From Candidatus Iainarchaeum sp. (lineage in GTDB: Archaea > Iainarchaeota > Iainarchaeia > Iainarchaeales > CSSED10-239): DNA of 32,000 bases. Under the pieces are notes generated by a model that was given only the letters and a program-made list of their open reading frames with translations, had not been told where the DNA came from and searched no databases. Position 1 is the first letter of the stretch, and each line of letters begins with the position of its first letter. Below are positions 2,058-30,786 of this stretch, piece after piece. The stretch is from NCBI GenBank assembly GCA_037441475.1, contig JBBISB010000001.1:517465-549464 (forward strand), written 5' to 3'. The position numbers and the translations under genes were made by a program.

Positions 2058-2399
2058 TTAGACCTTTATCTTCCTTAAAACATTATCGACTTCTTTAATA
2101 TCTATTTCTCTTTTATCAATCTCACTCTTTGATAAAACCTTACTTTCTATAATCTTTTCATAAAAATCTTTATAGCTAAGGCCTGCAAGCTTAGCTGCCT
2201 CTGATAAAGTAGAATTTGTTTTTTCAAGAAGCTCTACAGCTTTTTTAAACCTATATTCTAAAACTCCCTTCTCAATAATACTTCTAAGAAGTTCAGATTC
2301 ACTTATCTTTGTTTCCTTAACCATATAGTTTATATTTTTTATAGTGGAATCAGATAATCTTATTGTTTTTGATTTTAACTTATATTCCATATTTTTCAC
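2058..2399 (-). CDS. Small DNA-binding antitoxin-like protein (RHH-like N-terminus, UPF0175-like HTH C-terminus)
   Basis: TIRLSDSTIKNINYMVKETKISESELLRSIIEKG looks like a ribbon-helix-helix. LSEAAKLAGLSYKDFYEKI resembles the UPF0175 antitoxin helix-turn-helix. No cognate toxin ORF is adjacent. Confidence 0.4.
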   Translation of the reverse strand: MKNMEYKLKSKTIRLSDSTIKNINYMVKETKISESELLRSIIEKGVLEYRFKKAVELLEKTNSTLSEAAKLAGLSYKDFYEKIIESKVLSKSEIDKREIDIKEVDNVLRKIKV

Positions 2400-2479
2400 A
2401 TTTTTTTAAATATTCTTTTCCAATATAAATATATTTTTGTTTTATTTTGTTTGTTAAAAGATTTAAGTAATTATTTGCA

Positions 2480-3215
2480 TTATCTAAAGTTATTTTTTAT
2501 TATTTCTTCACAAATTATTTTAAAATCAATCCTATTTTTTTTAAATATAAAGTGATTTGTAGAGTTATTATAATATTTTATTTTTAGAGGGTCATTTATT
2601 ATTTGTTTTAATTTTAAGGTTACTTTTTCATTTATGCTAAGTCTTTTTATTTTTAGTATGTGATATATATCGTAAATATCTTTTCCTTCATCCCTATTTA
2701 GAAACGCATCTATTTTTTGAAAAAAAAGTTCTTCTAAAGAATATACTTTATATAGAGATGTTATGTTGCTTGTAAATCCTGGATTTATAATTTTTAATTC
2801 TGCAGAATGCATTTTTTATTGTTTATTCTAAATTCTAATCTTATTTTGTATTTTTCATTAAATTCATTAATATATTGTACAGCATACCTTATTGTTTTAT
2901 TCATTATTCTAGGATTACTTAAAATATACTCGTTTAGTTCTTTTTTAATTATTTTGTATATTTCTTCTTTAATTGTATTTATTTCTTTATAGTATATATG
3001 TCAAAATCAATATCTTCTGAAAATCTTTTATTTTCTGAAAAATAAACTCTATTTAATGCCGTGCCTCCTTTTAAAATAATATTTTCTATTTTTCCTTCTA
3101 ATTTTTTAAATATTTTAGAAAGTTCTATATCTTTCATAATATAGTTTATAGATAAACCTGTTTCTAAAGCCTTTTTTCTAATTTCCTTTACTGCAGTCAT
3201 TTTTAATTCCACCAA
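2480..3215 (-). pseudogene. AbiEii-type nucleotidyltransferase toxin (type IV TA), split over three reading frames
   Basis: The N-terminal fragment (2979..3215) carries LKGGTALNRVYFSENKRFSEDIDFD, the AbiEii/DUF1814 GGTAL...R.S.DxDF signature. A second frame is open 3000..2797 (HIYYKEINTIKEEIYKII...). The C-terminal fragment (2480..2812) has EELFFQKIDAFLNRDEGKDIYDIYHI, typical of the AbiEii C-terminal domain. The summed length of about 245 aa fits the family. Confidence 0.65.
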
Positions 3216-3985
3216 CTAATGATGTTTTCTTTTCCAAAATTATCTTTTATTTTCCAATCAGATAAGTATTTGGATTTTCTTTGTTTGCTGTTAAAAAGAT
3301 AAGTTTTTGATTTTTCTTGTTCTTTAAAAAAATCAATTACTTTTAAGGGTATTTTTATGTTTGTTTCTTTATTAATTAAATCTAAGATATAGCCTGTTAT
3401 CTGTTTTTGTCTTTTACTTTTTATTTCTTTATTTAATTTAATAAATTCATCCCAGTTTATTTTATTAGATATTTCGTATATAGCTTTAGAAAGAGTAGGA
3501 TACCCTCCTGAATATTCTATTTTTGAAAAACAATCTAAAATTGTTTTTTCAAGAGTAGATATTGGTATTTCTTCTTTAATAATGTAATTATTGAAATTTT
3601 TCGTATTAATATATTTTATTGTAATTTCGTTTATTTTAATCTCTTTAGATTTATTATTGGTTGCTATAAATATAGTTTCTGGAAGATAATCAATTAGTCC
3701 ATAATTATATAGTGCAGTAGAATATGCAATATACCCAAAGTTATATGTTATTGCAATTTTTTGAATTTCTTTATAACTATATTCTTGATTTAATAGATAT
3801 GTTCCTTTACTTATTCTTAGGATATATTTTTTATCAACTAAATTTTTTAAAAATCTGTTAATCTTATTTGTATTTAAGTCTGGATAAACTTGATGTATTT
3901 CCTTGGTTGTAAAAAGAGTAGTGATGTCTTTTATAGTGGTGTATATTTCTAGTTCGCCTTTAGATAGGTGGTTATTATTTACCAT
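3203..3985 (-). CDS. AbiEi-like antitoxin / transcriptional regulator
   Basis: It sits immediately upstream of the AbiEii fragment and overlaps it by 13 nt. The N-terminal wHTH-like region and the motif GYIAYSTALYNYGLIDYLPETIFIAT are typical of AbiEi proteins. Confidence 0.6.
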   Translation of the reverse strand: MVNNNHLSKGELEIYTTIKDITTLFTTKEIHQVYPDLNTNKINRFLKNLVDKKYILRISKGTYLLNQEYSYKEIQKIAITYNFGYIAYSTALYNYGLIDYLPETIFIATNNKSKEIKINEITIKYINTKNFNNYIIKEEIPISTLEKTILDCFSKIEYSGGYPTLSKAIYEISNKINWDEFIKLNKEIKSKRQKQITGYILDLINKETNIKIPLKVIDFFKEQEKSKTYLFNSKQRKSKYLSDWKIKDNFGKENIISWWN

Positions 3986-4114
3986 ATAATGTAATTATGT
4001 TGCATTAAGTTTAAATAATTAACCATTTACAATAATTAATATTTTTAACCCTTTATTTAGAAAAATAATAAAACCTAATTTTTTATTTGTTAACAAGATT
4101 AATTAAAAAGAAAC

Positions 4115-6436
4115 CTACTCTTCCGCAACTCTATTTTCTTTTATCCTCTTAATAATCCTTGGAGCGAACTTTTCAATATACCATTTCTTCCAAATCTCAA
4201 ACACTTCATCATAGTTTGTCTTACCGTGCTCATCTAAATATTCTTCCTTGGTTATTAAAAGCTTGTTATGAGTAAAAACAGTATTTTCAGCTTCCAAAAG
4301 CTCCATGACCTGGTTTTCCTGAGCAAAGTCTACTTGGAACTTCTTTTCCTTTGCCCTTAAGGTGATGTTATCCCATATCTCTTCAATAGTCATACCAGTA
4401 AGTCTTGATATCTTAGAGAAGATCTCAGAGTCTTTTAAGGCATCTTCATTAAGCACCAAGGTATCCTTTGAAGCATCATACTCCATTAGGTTTAAAATAC
4501 CCCCTTCAACCTCAGGATCAGTACTCCAATGTTTTCTAACCTCTGTTATCTGAACAACCCTTCTATGACTCTTAAGAGAGCCTTTAAACCTAATAGGCTT
4601 TGCAACAACAATAATGTCTGTTGCCTTAAATGAGGTGGTAGGTACATCTAAATCATTAACTACTCTGTCCCATACAGCATAAGCTGAGTCTGCGTGTATA
4701 GTTCCCATTACTACATTCCCTGCAGCACCAACTCTCATGGCTTCATACAGTACTTTTGCTTCAACAGATCTTACTTCTCCTACAATTAAAGCAGAATCAC
4801 CAAGTCTTAAAGCTGTTCTTAAGGCATCCTCTGGCTTCATTTCTGTGTTTGCATCCTCTCTAGTTCCACCAATAGCTGATCTTGTTTTTAATCTTTGGGC
4901 ATTAAAACCAATATCCTTCATATACATTACAGGAAGTTCTAAAGTGTCTTCTTGAACAATAATTCTTGCATTTTGTAAAATTTCAAGCATTAAGGCTGTC
5001 ATTAAAGAGGTTTTTCCTGCACCACGTGATCCTGCAACCAAAAGAGTGGAGTTGTTGTCTATAAAGAAGCTTAACATTCCAGCAGCTAAAGGGTTAAGTG
5101 ATTTAACATTTATAAGTTGAGGTAAGGTCCATGGTGTATCTTTATGTAACCTAAAAGCAAAGGCTATACCGTCTGTTGCAAGGGGCCTACCAATAACAGC
5201 TATCCTTGTGTTTAAATCTGGCATATCAAAGTCTAAGACAGGGTGTGCATCATCAAAAGGTCTTCCTGACATTGCTCTTATTTTTCCAACAAAGCTTTCT
5301 GCATCTTTTTCAGGATAATGAACATTTGTTTGACATTGTCCATATTTTGAGTGCACTAAGTATATTGGTTTTGCACCTAATGGTGAATCAAGATAAACAT
5401 CTGTTACTTGTTTGTCTGAAAGTAATAGTTCTAAAACACCATATCCAATAGTGTATCTTGTAACAATCTCTGATAGTGAATAAACATCATCAGGGGATAG
5501 TTCTATGTTATATTTTTTTGCAATATCAATGATTGTTGATTGATATATTCTTTGGAAATATTTTCTTGTACTCTCTCCAGTTGTTAAAGTTACTTTTCCT
5601 GGTTTATAGTTTGCTACAGTATCTTTTGTTTTTGTTAAAACAAAGTAGTGATCAGGGGAAAGAGTATACTCTGGAGGGTTAATTAAATATATATATTCTA
5701 CTTTTTCTGGATGTTTAAATATCTGTACAGAGGTGTTTAATACCTGGTATTCGTCAACAAATTCTAGAGTATCCATGTCTTTAAAGGTTAATTTTGATCC
5801 TATAAAAGAAGGCTTTATCTCTACTTCAAAGATTGTTCTATAGATATCTGTAACTTCAGATAGGTCTTTTACCTTCATTAAAAGCGGTTTTATTTTTCTT
5901 ATAAACTCTGTTTTTTCATACATCTCTTTTAGTTTTAAAAGATGTTTTACGTTTTGTGTAAAGCAAGGCTCGCATGGTTGTCCTCTTCTCTCTTGCCCTC
6001 TGTTTTTTGTATTTTCAATTTCTTTTAATAAACTAATGTATGAGGCTATAGGGTCATAGGCAAGAAGCTCTCTTGCAAACTTAATAATGTTATTATGTCT
6101 TTCTGGATAACATTCATCACAATCAATGTCTTTAAGGCCTAAGTGTTGTGACACCCAGACAGCTCTGTTTTCAAACTCTAAAAGTAGGTTTACCATTTCC
6201 TTAAGGTACTTGGTTTGTTCTTCATTATAGTTTCTTTCATAAACTTCAGCTAGGATGATTTCATCAGCATCAACAGTTTCTAGAACTTTCATTGCATGGA
6301 ACCTACATCTAGGGTCTTCAGCTATGGAGGTGTTGTAAGGGCAGTTTCTACAATCAAAAACTAGTTTTTTCTTATTTCCTTCAGTTGTTACTGCATAATC
6401 TCCAACTGTGAAATTTCCTATCTTCATACCTATCAA
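4115..6436 (-). CDS. Type II/IV secretion-family ATPase (FlaI/PilB/VirB11 superfamily), probable archaeal type IV pilus assembly ATPase with a long Cys-rich N-terminal extension
   Basis: Walker A is VAGSRGAGKTSLM, Walker B/Asp box is RIIVQEDTLEL, followed by GEVRSVEA and His box GTIHADSA. The N-terminal ~230 aa contain CRNCPYN...CRFH, CDECYPERH and CEPC. Confidence 0.85.
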   Translation of the reverse strand: MIGMKIGNFTVGDYAVTTEGNKKKLVFDCRNCPYNTSIAEDPRCRFHAMKVLETVDADEIILAEVYERNYNEEQTKYLKEMVNLLLEFENRAVWVSQHLGLKDIDCDECYPERHNNIIKFARELLAYDPIASYISLLKEIENTKNRGQERRGQPCEPCFTQNVKHLLKLKEMYEKTEFIRKIKPLLMKVKDLSEVTDIYRTIFEVEIKPSFIGSKLTFKDMDTLEFVDEYQVLNTSVQIFKHPEKVEYIYLINPPEYTLSPDHYFVLTKTKDTVANYKPGKVTLTTGESTRKYFQRIYQSTIIDIAKKYNIELSPDDVYSLSEIVTRYTIGYGVLELLLSDKQVTDVYLDSPLGAKPIYLVHSKYGQCQTNVHYPEKDAESFVGKIRAMSGRPFDDAHPVLDFDMPDLNTRIAVIGRPLATDGIAFAFRLHKDTPWTLPQLINVKSLNPLAAGMLSFFIDNNSTLLVAGSRGAGKTSLMTALMLEILQNARIIVQEDTLELPVMYMKDIGFNAQRLKTRSAIGGTREDANTEMKPEDALRTALRLGDSALIVGEVRSVEAKVLYEAMRVGAAGNVVMGTIHADSAYAVWDRVVNDLDVPTTSFKATDIIVVAKPIRFKGSLKSHRRVVQITEVRKHWSTDPEVEGGILNLMEYDASKDTLVLNEDALKDSEIFSKISRLTGMTIEEIWDNITLRAKEKKFQVDFAQENQVMELLEAENTVFTHNKLLITKEEYLDEHGKTNYDEVFEIWKKWYIEKFAPRIIKRIKENRVAEE

Positions 6437-27566: not shown

Positions 27567-28424
27567 ATGATCTTTAATAAAGTAACTCCTCAACAGTTCA
27601 TTAATAATGTTGAGAGTGTAGTAAATCTTGAAAAGAACCAGTTAAACTCTGCTCTTGAAAAAGAAAGCATAAAAAGTAAGGCAATTAAATTTACATTATC
27701 TGCAACTGACGAGCAACTTAAAAAATATTTAAAAAATTTTACTTCAAAAGAACTTCTGCAAGTCTTTAATGATTTTAAGGCCCTTAACTACAATCAAAAG
27801 AATCTTTTTTTAAATGTCTTAAACTACAATTCTCTTTACCACTCAAACAACAAAGAATCTACTTTCTTCATGCATACCTTAGATAAAGAGATTTGGAGAA
27901 TTAAAAAAGGTTTATTAAACACCAACATGCTTTTTCAAACACATCGAAAAGAATGTAAACATACTCTGTCTGGTTTTATAAGAGCCTTTAAAACAAACTC
28001 AATTTTCACAACAAAAATAACTATTGATGGAGAGGTAAGAAGAGTTTTTGTAAAAAACGAGATTGGTTCTCTAAAAGAAAAAGGAAATGTAGGGTACCAT
28101 CATCTTATCCTTGATCCAAAGGATATGCATATCTATAACCTTAGTATGATATCAGGAATAACACCTACGAGAATGACTTTAAAGGAAATCTCTAAACTTA
28201 AATTAAATAGTAAAGAAAGACTATTAAGTCTTGATTTTAATCATCTTCAAAAACAAATTCCAAACTACTCTATTGTTAAGTTTAATATTAAAAAAGAAAT
28301 GCAAGAGTACCTTAAAAGATACTCAAAAGGAATTAAAGATGCTAGAAGAGAGCATCATGAAAATTTATCTATATCAAAAGTTAAGTCTAGTAAAAAACCA
28401 TTACTTAAATTTTTTAAAAAATAA
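27567..28424 (+). CDS. Hypothetical protein
   Basis: 285-aa ORF starting 2 nt after the KH gene. Coding-like composition. No motif that I recognise. Confidence 0.4.
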   Translation: MIFNKVTPQQFINNVESVVNLEKNQLNSALEKESIKSKAIKFTLSATDEQLKKYLKNFTSKELLQVFNDFKALNYNQKNLFLNVLNYNSLYHSNNKESTFFMHTLDKEIWRIKKGLLNTNMLFQTHRKECKHTLSGFIRAFKTNSIFTTKITIDGEVRRVFVKNEIGSLKEKGNVGYHHLILDPKDMHIYNLSMISGITPTRMTLKEISKLKLNSKERLLSLDFNHLQKQIPNYSIVKFNIKKEMQEYLKRYSKGIKDARREHHENLSISKVKSSKKPLLKFFKK

Positions 28425-28425
28425 T

Positions 28426-30531
28426 TTATTTTTCTTCCATCTCTATTTTTAGAATATCCAAGTAACCAGTAAACTCATTTTCCATTATTGGGTTTGCACT
28501 TGTTATCCTTATTTTTTTTTTAAACAAAGGAGCATCCAAAACAATTGTCTCATACTCCCCTCCTTCTCCAGCAACATTTATTCCTTTTTTTTTGTTAATT
28601 ATCTTAAGATCAATTAAGTCCTCTTTAGTAAGTTTTTTTCCAAGCCAGGTGTCGTTTAAACCATACCCTGCAACCTTAACTATGATTACTTCAAATTTAT
28701 TATCTAACATCTCTTGGAAAACACCCTCTTGTGTCTTGTTCCAAAGAGGAGAAAACATTCTTAAGCCAAGTTCATTACATATCTCTTGTATCCTCTCTCT
28801 TTGATAATTACTTTTAATAGCTCCAGTAATTATTCCTTGAAGGGAGTATTTTTCTTTAGCCTTTAAGATTAGTTTCTTAAGGTCCTTAAGCTCTTCTTCC
28901 TTTATCCCTTTTGTCTTTTGTAAAACAAATGGTACCTCTAAGGCTTGTGATTGAAGAGAGAGTATCTTATCATCTACTTTTTGAAACATGTAGGAGTCTG
29001 GGTTTTCAGTCATCATTGTCATAAGGCAAGATATCTTATAGTTTTGTTTTGCCATTATGTGAAAGGCAAGGTTTGAGTCCTTTCCTCCTGAGAAAAGACA
29101 TCCTAGGTTTAGGTTTTCTTTTTTAGATACTTCTTTTAAAAATTCGCTCTTTTTTAATTTTTTTTCTTTAGATATTTTTTCAATCATTTTATCAAATCCA
29201 CTTCCATATTGTGCTGCTGTTTTTTTTCTCTGGTAATCTTCTTTTAGAAGATTTATTTTTTTTCCAATTTTTCTTAAAACCACTTTATTTTCTTCATTGT
29301 TTATTTTTTCTTTTTCTTCAAGTAAAAAAGATTCTTCAATAACCTCTTTATCAAGGTATGGTAATCTTACCTCTATGTTGTTGTTCGTACAAACAACGTC
29401 CTCTCTATAAAGATCATTTTCATGCATTTGGTATAACAGGTTTATGCTGTCTTTTAAAACATCAGTTGATTCTTTAAACCTCGAGTATCCTGCAAACAAC
29501 TCATCTGCACCAAGTCCAGAGAATATAACCTTTGCTCCATCCTCTCTTGCTTTTAAAGAGGCAAAGTATATAGGTAAGGACACTCCTATTTTTATAGGGT
29601 TTGATGACTCTATTTTTTCAACAAGTAAAGGAATTGTCTCTTCAATTTCTTTTTTATTTACTTTTATTTTTTCAACCTTAAAGCCATACTCCTTCTCTGT
29701 TCTTAAAACATTTGAAAGGTCCTTTGGGTCTATTACATTCCCTGCATATGCAAAATATCCTTTGAAAGGTATGTTGTTGTCTTTTAATATTTTTGAAATT
29801 AAAAGGGAGTCAAGACCTGAACTATAAAGCACAGCAAGCTTTTGTTTTTCAGGAACTCTTAAAAGAACTGCTTGTTTAATCTTTTCATACATCTTTTCTG
29901 TTGTTGTCTTTTTCTTTTCTATTTTATAGAAAGGTATTTTCTTAAAAGTGATTTTGTTTTTTAAAACTTCATAAAAAAGTTCTTTTCTAGGATCAAGAAA
30001 CTGAATGTTTTTAAAACCAATTTTTTCTAAAACCTTTTTTTCAGAGGCAAAGCCAAAAGATTTATTTTCTAAGGAAAACCATAGTGGCTTAATCCCAAGA
30101 AGATCTCTTCTTAGGTATATTTTATTTCCATCATAAAAGCAAACAGCATATGGTCCATTCATCTCTTCAAATATCTTAAAACCAATCTTCTCTATTCCCT
30201 TAATAATAAAGTCAGAGTCATTTTTAACCTTAATCTTATATTTTAAAGAAAGTTCTTTGTAATTATAGATCTCACAGTTTGAAACAAGTACTTTTCCTTT
30301 ATGTACTATTGGTTGAGATACATTTCCTGTTATAGAAAGTAAGTTATGTGCAAAAACAACACCTGTAGATATGTTTTCTTTATTAAAGTTGTTAATCTCC
30401 TTAGAATAAACACACCTACCATTAAAGTAAACTCCATTATTATCCAAACCTCTTTTTTCTAATATCTTAAGGGAGGCAATAATCTTTTCTTTACTTTCAG
30501 GGACATTAACCAGTCCAATTATTGAGCACAT
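28426..30531 (-). CDS. Fusion protein: AsnB-like glutamine amidotransferase/asparagine-synthetase module plus Dph6/MJ0570-type PP-loop ATPase (diphthine-ammonia ligase-like) domain
   Basis: N-terminus MCSIIG (Ntn Cys2), AHNLLSITGNVSQP, SNCEIYNY, RRDLLGIKPLWF, FASEKK. Synthetase domain LAVLYSSGLDS, EVRLPYLD. C-terminal third LGCLFSGGKDSNLAFH, ITGAIKSNYQRERIQEICNELGLRMFSPLW, NVAGEGGEYETIVLDAPLF, which is the Dph6/MJ0570 signature. Confidence 0.8.
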   Translation of the reverse strand: MCSIIGLVNVPESKEKIIASLKILEKRGLDNNGVYFNGRCVYSKEINNFNKENISTGVVFAHNLLSITGNVSQPIVHKGKVLVSNCEIYNYKELSLKYKIKVKNDSDFIIKGIEKIGFKIFEEMNGPYAVCFYDGNKIYLRRDLLGIKPLWFSLENKSFGFASEKKVLEKIGFKNIQFLDPRKELFYEVLKNKITFKKIPFYKIEKKKTTTEKMYEKIKQAVLLRVPEKQKLAVLYSSGLDSLLISKILKDNNIPFKGYFAYAGNVIDPKDLSNVLRTEKEYGFKVEKIKVNKKEIEETIPLLVEKIESSNPIKIGVSLPIYFASLKAREDGAKVIFSGLGADELFAGYSRFKESTDVLKDSINLLYQMHENDLYREDVVCTNNNIEVRLPYLDKEVIEESFLLEEKEKINNEENKVVLRKIGKKINLLKEDYQRKKTAAQYGSGFDKMIEKISKEKKLKKSEFLKEVSKKENLNLGCLFSGGKDSNLAFHIMAKQNYKISCLMTMMTENPDSYMFQKVDDKILSLQSQALEVPFVLQKTKGIKEEELKDLKKLILKAKEKYSLQGIITGAIKSNYQRERIQEICNELGLRMFSPLWNKTQEGVFQEMLDNKFEVIIVKVAGYGLNDTWLGKKLTKEDLIDLKIINKKKGINVAGEGGEYETIVLDAPLFKKKIRITSANPIMENEFTGYLDILKIEMEEK

Positions 30532-30547
30532 GTTTTAATGATTAGTT

Positions 30548-30652
30548 TTTTAATATTTATTTTAATATAATATATTTTAATATAATATATTTTAATATTT
30601 ATTTTAATATAATATATTTTAATATTTATTTTAATATAATATATTTTAATAT
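30548..30652. repeat. Tandem array of eight TTTTAATAT cores with alternating 12-nt (A) and 15-nt (B) units in order A-B-B-A-B-A-B plus a partial unit; 27-bp higher-order AB unit
   Basis: Read directly: A is TTTTAATATTTA and B is TTTTAATATAATATA. It lies in the divergent intergenic region between 30531 (minus-strand start) and 30787 (plus-strand start). Confidence 0.9.
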
Positions 30653-30786
30653 AACAAGTAAGGTATATATACTTATTGTTACAAATATACTTTAATACTT
30701 CTTATTTTTAAAAAAAGAATAAGCAGGTAAGCTTTTTAAATCTTTTTAACTATATTACATATATAAATATATTTTAGTGATACTTT

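Follow-up and report, generated by a model that had tools for sequence, protein, structure and literature searches.

The window analysed here is a 32,000-nucleotide stretch of the genome of the archaeon Candidatus Iainarchaeum sp., and the gene in question is an open reading frame on its minus strand (28426-30531) that encodes 701 amino acids (aa) with zero internal stops. The protein combines a class II glutamine amidotransferase (GATase, below also the glutaminase), a PP-loop domain resembling that of the asparagine synthetase AsnB, and the diphthine-ammonia ligase Dph6. The middle domain, for which SYN is used as a working name, is physically tied to Dph6 in many lineages, whether or not the glutaminase is present. 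The gene and its parts are as follows:

28426..30531, minus strand: whole gene, fusion of GATase, AsnB-like PP-loop and Dph6 domains, stop codon included (open reading frame, Pfam, NCBIfam)
29947..30531, minus strand: class II (Ntn) glutamine amidotransferase domain, residues 1-195 (Pfam GATase_7 and GATase_6; AsnB-equivalent residues invariant)
30526-30528, minus strand: codon of Cys2
29122..29919, minus strand: AsnB-type, putatively adenylating PP-loop domain of the 'AAQYGS' subfamily (SYN), residues 205-470 (Pfam Asn_synthase; end-to-end alignment with stand-alone proteins of ~300 aa; profile alignment to 1ct9 and 6gq3)
29806..29823, minus strand: PP-loop 1, SSGLDS, residues 237-242 (mostly SGG[IVL]DS in relatives)
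29584..29595, minus strand: I313-K314-I315-G316, opposite T-T-I-R of AsnB (Thr322/Thr323/Arg325 region); K314 and G316 hardly vary within the family
29500..29520, minus strand: SGLGADE, residues 338-344, with Leu340 at the position of AsnB Glu348 (human ASNS Glu364)
29200..29229, minus strand: RKKTAAQYGS, residues 435-444, the signature loop of the subfamily, including K437 (equivalent of Lys449)
28429..29106, minus strand: Dph6 (diphthine-ammonia ligase) domain, residues 476-701 (TIGR03679; 3rjz and 2d13, E-value 5e-51; Foldseek TM 0.94-0.96)
29074..29091, minus strand: PP-loop 2, SGGKDS, residues 481-486
28546..28569, minus strand: GEGGEYET, residues 655-662; E656, E659 and E661 correspond to PF0828 E183, E186 and E188

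Domain layout and recurrence of the fusion

On the 701-aa protein Pfam places GATase_7 at residues 72-169 (E-value 3e-18; GATase_7 and GATase_6 jointly cover 54-169), Asn_synthase at 215-355 and along a second stretch (4e-33), and Diphthami_syn_2 (PF01902) at 478-696 (5e-61). A first-pass annotation, made from the letters of the window, had described roughly 470 residues of glutaminase and AsnB-like synthetase followed by about 230 residues of Dph6. The three-part fusion stands, with the boundaries amended to approximately 1-195, 205-470, and 476-701, and all the motifs quoted there were located, MCSIIG at residues 1-6 and SSGLDS, SGGKDS, and GEGGEYET where they are listed above. Only about five residues connect the AsnB-like part with Dph6. 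A full-length AlphaFold2 (AF2) model based on 36 relatives has a pLDDT of 92 and a pTM of 0.89; by this score, which is a weak proxy for domain placement, the Dph6 domain is confidently placed. Foldseek superimposes residues 1-470 on E. coli AsnB (1ct9) with a target-normalised TM of 0.81, and the last 226 residues on PH1257 and PF0828 with a TM of 0.94-0.96.

The C-terminal domain reaches 247.3 bits against TIGR03679 (Dph6_archaeal), for which the curated cut-off is 197.3, and covers positions 2-216 of the 218 in the model. Nine residues specific for Dph6 have been listed (de Crecy-Lagard et al., 2012, Biol Direct 7:32, PMC3541065), which in PF0828 are S44, Y45, E78, Y103, Q104, A149, E183, E186, and E188. 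Eight of these are identical here (S513, Y514, E547, Y576, Q577, E656, E659, and E661), and the ninth, A149, is replaced by G622, while most relatives have alanine. The fusion is the sole match to PF01902 in the 769-kb genome, so that there is no separate dph6 gene, and Dph2 (C1:10464-11315) and Dph5 (C1:394344-395039) are encoded by one copy each. The EF2 of the same genome carries the motif HEDAIHRG, including the target histidine. With a score above the curated cut-off and as the only Dph6 in the genome, the C-terminal part is the bona fide Dph6 it had been taken for, and it can be predicted with confidence that this domain amidates diphthine on EF2.

Conservation was assessed in an alignment with 36 diverse relatives showing 41-77% identity. 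In the glutaminase C2, R27, N85, E87, and D105, which correspond to C1, R49, N74, E76, and D98 of AsnB, are invariant. The earlier assignment of a class II GATase with Cys2 as the nucleophile is thus upheld by both the nucleophile and the glutamine pocket, and judged from these residues the glutaminase looks active.

When 5.8 billion proteins were searched by word index, the fusion had 1036 matches. The best 120 of these are all ~670-735 aa long and have this three-domain layout at identities as low as 41%, and many are encoded on contigs above 500 kb. The name given to such fusion proteins by NCBI is 'diphthine--ammonia ligase'. The architecture is accordingly widespread and the relatives are fused as well; the continuous frame and the recurrence among database proteins show that the fusion recognised in the first-pass annotation is real, intact, and conserved. 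An assembly or frameshift artefact joining two genes was ruled out on the same grounds. The parts are indeed separate genes, overlapping by 4 nt, in Methanococcoides (L058 and L116), which speaks for an artefact; however, the frame is unbroken here, the architecture occurs in more than 1000 proteins from independent sources, many of them on contigs above 500 kb, and long frames (~700 aa) hold ~43 of the phylum's 150 best matches to Dph6, which makes an artefact next to inconceivable.

Fusions of AsnB with DUF71 were described more than a decade ago (de Crecy-Lagard et al., 2012), the examples being from Methanohalophilus mahii, Methanosalsum zhilinae, and 'Ca. Nanosalinarum', and it was proposed that the class II glutamine amidotransferase (GAT-II) domain is the source of NH3 for both PP-loop domains (PMC3541065). 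In the same paper a reviewer asked which of the PP-loops uses the NH3, and what the AsnB-like one does (PMC3541065). The present protein is a further member of this architecture, known since 2012, and the statement that no glutamine-dependent Dph6 had been described has to be corrected, since both the fusions and the same proposal for the ammonia supply were already published (PMC3541065). A search of the literature for experimental follow-up on AsnB-DUF71 fusions after 2012 found none.

The active site of the middle domain

When it comes to the curated families, SYN falls short of the asparagine synthetases. It scores 233 bits against TIGR01536 (asn_synth_AEB), where the cut-off is 267.1, and 182 against PRK09431, where it is 499. 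No curated NCBIfam family was found for the SYN subfamily, all members scanned fall below the AsnB cut-off, and NCBIfam gives weak matches of the subfamily to lasso and macrolactam cyclases. The comparison of Asp- and AMP-binding residues with AsnB that had been suggested in the first-pass annotation was made by pairwise and profile alignment, using 1ct9 and 6gq3, and the outcome was divided. The PP-loop, the D-x-x-R motif, and the equivalent of Lys449 are kept, while Glu348 and the T-T-x-R motif are replaced. The position of Glu348 is occupied by Leu340 here and by L, I, M, T, or Q across the subfamily, and T-T-x-R has become I-K-I-G here and V/I-K-x-G, with the consensus V-K-V-G, in the subfamily. 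In human ASNS the exchanges E364A and E364Q abolish activity, and T336I, in the region of the T-T-x-R motif at the aspartate site, leaves next to none (PMC6748925). Glu364, which is Glu348 in AsnB, is needed for the formation of β-aspartyl-AMP.

Several other residues of SYN are invariant in the 36 relatives. These are S237, G239, D241, S242, K437, and R376/D378, and also the A-A-Q-Y-G-S loop, which is unique to the subfamily. The invariant PP-loop and K437 argue for retained ATP chemistry, and SYN is probably catalytically active. Judged by these motifs it belongs to a distinct subfamily, recognisable by the loop R-K-K-x-A-A-Q-Y-G-S, and not a canonical asparagine synthetase. The annotation 'asparagine synthase' for this family is almost certainly wrong in that the proteins do not make asparagine.

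It could be argued that the N-terminal two thirds of the protein nevertheless are a genuine, divergent, glutamine-dependent asparagine synthetase which provides asparagine for the asparaginyl-tRNA synthetase (AsnRS) of this auxotrophic cell and became fused to Dph6 by chance. The genome does encode AsnRS (424 bits, cut-off 343); a search of it for another Asn_synthase or AsnA-like gene found none, and the TIGR01536 score is not far under the cut-off. It is, however, below it, and the replacement of Glu348 by Leu and of T-T-x-R affects residues whose exchange in the human enzyme (E364A, E364Q, T336I) leaves it dead or nearly so. Further, the subfamily is present as a single copy in methanogens and anaerobic methanotrophic archaea (ANME) that lack AsnRS, and it is kept in 55 of the 58 high-quality genomes of the phylum, although amino-acid biosynthesis has been lost there almost completely. 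Four of five SYN-carrying methanogen and ANME genomes have no AsnRS above the cut-off, which in itself argues against asparagine synthesis. A true asparagine synthetase was rejected on the active-site residues, the curated cut-off, and the occurrence without AsnRS, and the chance fusion must be considered very improbable. The same replaced Asp and acyl-adenylate residues speak against the alternative, put forward in the first-pass annotation, of two independent amidations, if this is read as asparagine synthesis next to Dph6.

The opposite idea, and the one then preferred, was that SYN is a non-catalytic scaffold or tunnel carrying glutamine-derived ammonia to the Dph6 site, as the sequence SSGLDS is a non-canonical PP-loop. 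This argument does not hold, since SSGLDS is a quirk of the lineage from which the window comes; the relatives mostly have SGG[IVL]DS in SYN, with catalytic residues and K437 invariant, and it is the Dph6 loop that is SSGKDS in most of them. The loss of the aspartate-handling residues, the short and rigid connector, the high pTM of the full-length model, and the proposal of GAT-II as the ammonia source (PMC3541065) are all compatible with a conduit. A passive conduit would, however, have no need of the PP-loop, the Lys449 equivalent, and the AAQYGS loop, all of which are invariant. SYN also stays with Dph6, in one frame or as a neighbour, in the absence of any glutaminase that it could serve, and it is conserved as a stand-alone gene far from Dph6. 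A mere scaffold is thus improbable, if somewhat less so than a diverged asparagine synthetase.

Linkage to Dph6 and gene company of SYN

A search with SYN alone, restricted in length to leave out the fusions, retrieved stand-alone proteins of two kinds, ~290-310 aa (SYN only) and ~455-466 aa (glutaminase and SYN). They share the R-x-K-x-A-A-Q-Y-G-S loop, have no acidic residue at the position of Glu348, and align with SYN from end to end, including the helices that form the 'linker' of the fusion. Some of the ~455-aa forms begin with MSG or MGG and not with MCG.

The 215 genomes of the phylum to which the source genome belongs were searched for Dph6, and the 150 best matches were sorted by the size of the open frame and counted by eye. 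Frames of 209-320 aa hold approximately 80 of them, those of 348-567 aa ~25, and those of at least 636 aa ~43. Ten loci with intermediate frames were looked into, and all ten encode SYN-Dph6 fusions without a glutaminase in frame. Using tblastn, no partner glutaminase gene was found within 2 kb of these ten fusions; GATase_7 matches elsewhere in five of the genomes lie in open frames of ~470-620 aa.

A scan of one genome per species gave 467 relatives, and linkage was counted for the best 80 of them. These comprise 22-23 full fusions, three SYN-Dph6 fusions, six loci with a separate neighbouring Dph6 gene, and two with a neighbouring Dph2 gene. The separate Dph6 genes overlap SYN and are co-directional in Methanococcoides, convergent in Altiarchaeota, and divergent in others, and a seventh adjacent pair was found on a metagenome contig. 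In all, 96 loci were collected, of which 22-23 encode GAT-SYN-Dph6 and 14 SYN-Dph6 without the glutaminase, while seven have an adjacent Dph6 gene and two an adjacent Dph2 gene. In a maximum-likelihood tree of the 96 SYN domains all the Dph6-linked forms, from DPANN archaea and Methanosarcinales, fall in one clade (SH-aLRT 98). Within this clade the linkage state has changed at least nine times and the presence of the glutaminase at least ten times.

In Methanococcoides the stop of one gene and the start of the other overlap by 4 nt, the first encoding GATase and SYN and the second Dph6 (L058, L116); here a methanogen amenable to cultivation has the fusion naturally split in two. As a separate observation, Dph2 adjoins a stand-alone SYN gene in an uncultured archaeon (L120, 2383-4903) and in a genome of the Altiarchaeia (L107).

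The orthologue nearest to the fusion on the SYN tree is from the same genus (L048, which is G028:C10, 3563-5470) and has an overall identity of 49.5%. Its SYN and Dph6 domains are intact, while the glutaminase has shrunk to ~70 residues, starts with MFKLIG, and has Phe in the place of Cys2; it looks like a loss caught in progress. Since versions without the glutaminase exist, this domain is not the reason that the two PP-loop domains stay together, and the distribution of the sequences suggests that the glutaminase is an optional accessory and that the conserved partnership is the one between SYN and Dph6.

The SYN subfamily is a near-universal, single-copy archaeal gene found among translation genes (Dph6, Dph2, Elp3, Pelota, and ABCE1). 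In the phylum of the source genome 188 of the 215 genomes encode SYN, nearly always once, as compared to 200 with Dph6 and 192 with Elp3. It is a single-copy gene in 145 of the 151 Methanobacteriota sampled (the phylum that includes Methanobacteriaceae), in frames of 480-550 aa, and named carriers include Thermococcus, Methanothermococcus, Methanococcoides, 'Ca. Jordarchaeum', and Thermoplasmata. In the Thermoproteota SYN is patchy (59 of 101 genomes, as compared to 89 with Elp3), and a genome can evidently have Elp3 or Dph6 without it. The recurring neighbours of unfused SYN genes are a DRG-type GTPase, Pelota, and ABCE1, and GatB, Trm1, aIF5B, and TYW3 occur occasionally. The gene contexts of distant family members are heterogeneous. 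Some of these members (P0266 from Thermoplasmata, at L133, and the P0129 locus) lie among genes for glycosyltransferases, epimerases, and CapK-like proteins, and the wider family may include sugar-acid amidases and lack a single function. Searching the literature with candidate locus tags for the orthologues of methanogens and Thermococcus yielded nothing.

The source genome consists of two contigs and is 89.5% complete, and the G+C content of the window is ~25%. The nearest relatives are named Woesearchaeota, Nanoarchaeota, and Iainarchaeota, which are all DPANN archaea. The fusion gene is convergent, with 1 nt from stop to stop, with an operon encoding aIF2-beta, aIF1A, the RIO1 kinase, a KH/KRR1-like protein, and a 285-aa protein. 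The last of these (27567-28424, plus strand) has no Pfam match. On its other side the fusion gene is divergent from top6B, and the intergenic region (30567-30712) contains a series of A+T-rich promoter-like hexamer pairs (TTAAAA ... TATATT), several copies of which are ~27 bp apart.

Possible roles of SYN and relation to known systems

The reading tentatively favoured here, though given slightly less than even odds, is that SYN cooperates with Dph6 as one diphthamide-related unit, and that the glutaminase is an optional nitrogen supply. The gene would then encode a three-domain diphthamide synthetase of a DPANN archaeon. Glutamine would be hydrolysed at Cys2, and an AsnB-type tunnel would lead the ammonia to the SYN adenylation site, which it would probably reach first and from which it may pass on to the Dph6 site. 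SYN would bind ATP and a carboxylate other than aspartate. The Dph6 domain would adenylate the carboxylate of diphthine on EF2 and then amidate it, and SYN and Dph6 would act as a single unit for amidation of the translation apparatus, SYN presumably cooperating with Dph6 rather than merely travelling along with it. The carboxylate for SYN may be diphthine itself, in which case the two PP-loop domains form one unit, or another translation-related substrate. The glutaminase would be an add-on nitrogen supply, repeatedly lost in relatives. The source genome encodes a GatE-like protein in addition to AsnRS. Neither GlnA nor Amt was found in it, which makes imported glutamine a plausible nitrogen currency.

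Several points weigh against such cooperation. Yeast Dph6 by itself amidates diphthine in vitro, and a middle domain is thus dispensable for the reaction. Dph6 also works without SYN in family f34 (G198-G211; 14 genomes of 0.4-1.0 Mb), where Dph6 is kept in 12 of the 14 genomes and SYN in none, and about 40% of the sampled Thermoproteota are without SYN. The forms that have no glutaminase leave the purpose of a mere ammonia conduit unexplained. The AF2 model of a SYN-Dph6 relative without the glutaminase, built from a 12-sequence alignment, has a pLDDT of 89.5 and a pTM of 0.56, in disagreement with the 0.89 of the full-length fusion; the domains are well folded, and the interface between them is not robustly predicted. 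Finally, Elp3 is likewise absent from all 14 genomes of f34, and this loss, together with the adjacency of the Elp3 and SYN genes in Thermoplasmatota, hints at a different substrate.

That substrate is the subject of the most serious competing explanation, in which the protein is bifunctional. Dph6 would amidate diphthine, while the glutaminase and SYN act on a different carboxylate in the translation machinery and turn it into an amide or a nitrile, and the fusion would provide co-regulation or a shared source of ammonia. The most attractive candidate is the 5-carboxymethyluridine (cm5U34) made by Elp3 in tRNA, which would become 5-carbamoylmethyluridine (ncm5U) or 5-cyanomethyluridine (cnm5U), a step for which we know of no enzyme. 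In Thermoplasmatota and on marine contigs (L117 from Thermoplasmatota, 2396-4849; L038, 3483-5930; L039) a mere 3 nt separate the stop codon of the radical-SAM enzyme Elp3 from the start of a stand-alone SYN gene downstream. Comparison of coordinates further showed that in ~40 genomes of the phylum with unfused SYN, Elp3 lies 1.5-8 kb away on the same contig, in a cluster with Pelota and ABCE1. Six such regions, all from relatives that lack the fusion, were annotated (L135-L140, from G083, G051, G101, G174, G085, and G163). Within 4-8 kb they encode Elp3, Pelota, ABCE1, a DUF4139 protein, an Hjc-like endonuclease, and SYN, as a cluster that is loosely conserved. Family f34, the sole clade of the phylum that lacks SYN, has lost Elp3 and mostly kept Dph6. 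The single-copy occurrence of SYN in Methanobacteriota and its presence in Thermococcus and Methanothermococcus also fit, as do the natural forms without a glutaminase, and cnm5U and cnm5s2U (its 2-thio derivative) are found at position 34 in T. kodakarensis and M. jannaschii (PMC11323500). AsnB-like enzymes are able to amidate or nitrilate macromolecular carboxylates; one of them converts a peptide carboxylate to a nitrile using glutamine or, in its place, NH3 (PMC13060819).

Several observations count against this reading. Direct adjacency to Elp3 is seen in one lineage only, as against dozens of links to Dph6, and the joint loss of SYN and Elp3 is a single evolutionary event. The proximity at 3-8 kb belongs to a wider cluster of translation genes and could be synteny inherited from an ancestor. 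In many Thermoproteota Elp3 is present and SYN absent, as is seen from the counts given above, and four bacteria with SYN-related proteins were searched for Elp3 and none was found. No tRNA-binding domain is evident, and some distant members of the SYN family are found in glycan-synthesis clusters. A bifunctional protein is thus judged rather unlikely, although still the closest rival to cooperation between SYN and Dph6. The Elongator and diphthamide pathways are linked in eukaryotes via Dph3/Kti11. A more daring and clearly less probable extension is that the SYN family is the missing enzyme between cm5U34 and ncm5U or cnm5U, in which case the fusion would place the final amide steps of the Elongator and diphthamide pathways on one polypeptide, served by one glutaminase.

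To our knowledge the nitrogen source of the last diphthamide step has never been settled, and we know of no archaeal Dph6 with an attached glutaminase that has been assayed. The fusion protein, or its relatives in Methanococcoides, offers a clean test of glutamine versus ammonium. Identification of the SYN substrate, with diphthine-EF2, cm5U-tRNA, or something else as the candidates, would correct the widespread misannotation as 'asparagine synthase' and might also reveal a missing modification enzyme.

The closest known system is the AsnB-DUF71 class of 2012, in which the domain order GAT-II, Asn_synthase PP-loop, and DUF71 on one polypeptide is the same as here, as is the hypothesis of GAT-II as the supplier of NH3. 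The fusion was at that time reported from 'a few Archaea', the middle domain was not split from true AsnB, and forms that are split or lack the glutaminase were unreported. What is added here is that SYN is set apart as a subfamily, that its tie to Dph6 is independent of the glutaminase, and that glutaminase-less and split forms exist. E. coli AsnB (1ct9) and human ASNS (6gq3) have in common with the fusion the two-domain fold (TM 0.81), the glutaminase with Cys1 as its nucleophile, the PP-loop, D-x-x-R, and the Lys449 equivalent. They differ in that the fusion has Leu for Glu348 and I-K-I-G for T-T-x-R, is shorter in the part beyond the Lys449 loop, falls below the TIGR01536 cut-off, and belongs to a subfamily that is found also in organisms without AsnRS. 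Enzymes in which the acyl pocket of the AsnB scaffold is remodelled and which act on a protein-borne carboxylate are the C-terminal peptide amidases TsrC and ScdTA, the nitrile-forming PesC, and the lasso-peptide cyclases, and PesC accepts NH3 instead of glutamine (PMC13060819). While these belong to bacterial secondary metabolism, SYN is a single-copy archaeal housekeeping gene near translation genes. The stand-alone archaeal Dph6 proteins PF0828 (PDB 3rjz/3rk0/3rk1) and PH1257 (2d13) align over their full length with residues 476-701 at ~39% identity and a TM of 0.94-0.96, and share the PP-loop and eight of the nine signature residues, but they have no partner domain, whereas the fusion has one at its N-terminus. 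Yeast Dph6 does have partners, in the form of two C-terminal RidA-like domains, while the partner in the fusion is N-terminal and derived from AsnB.

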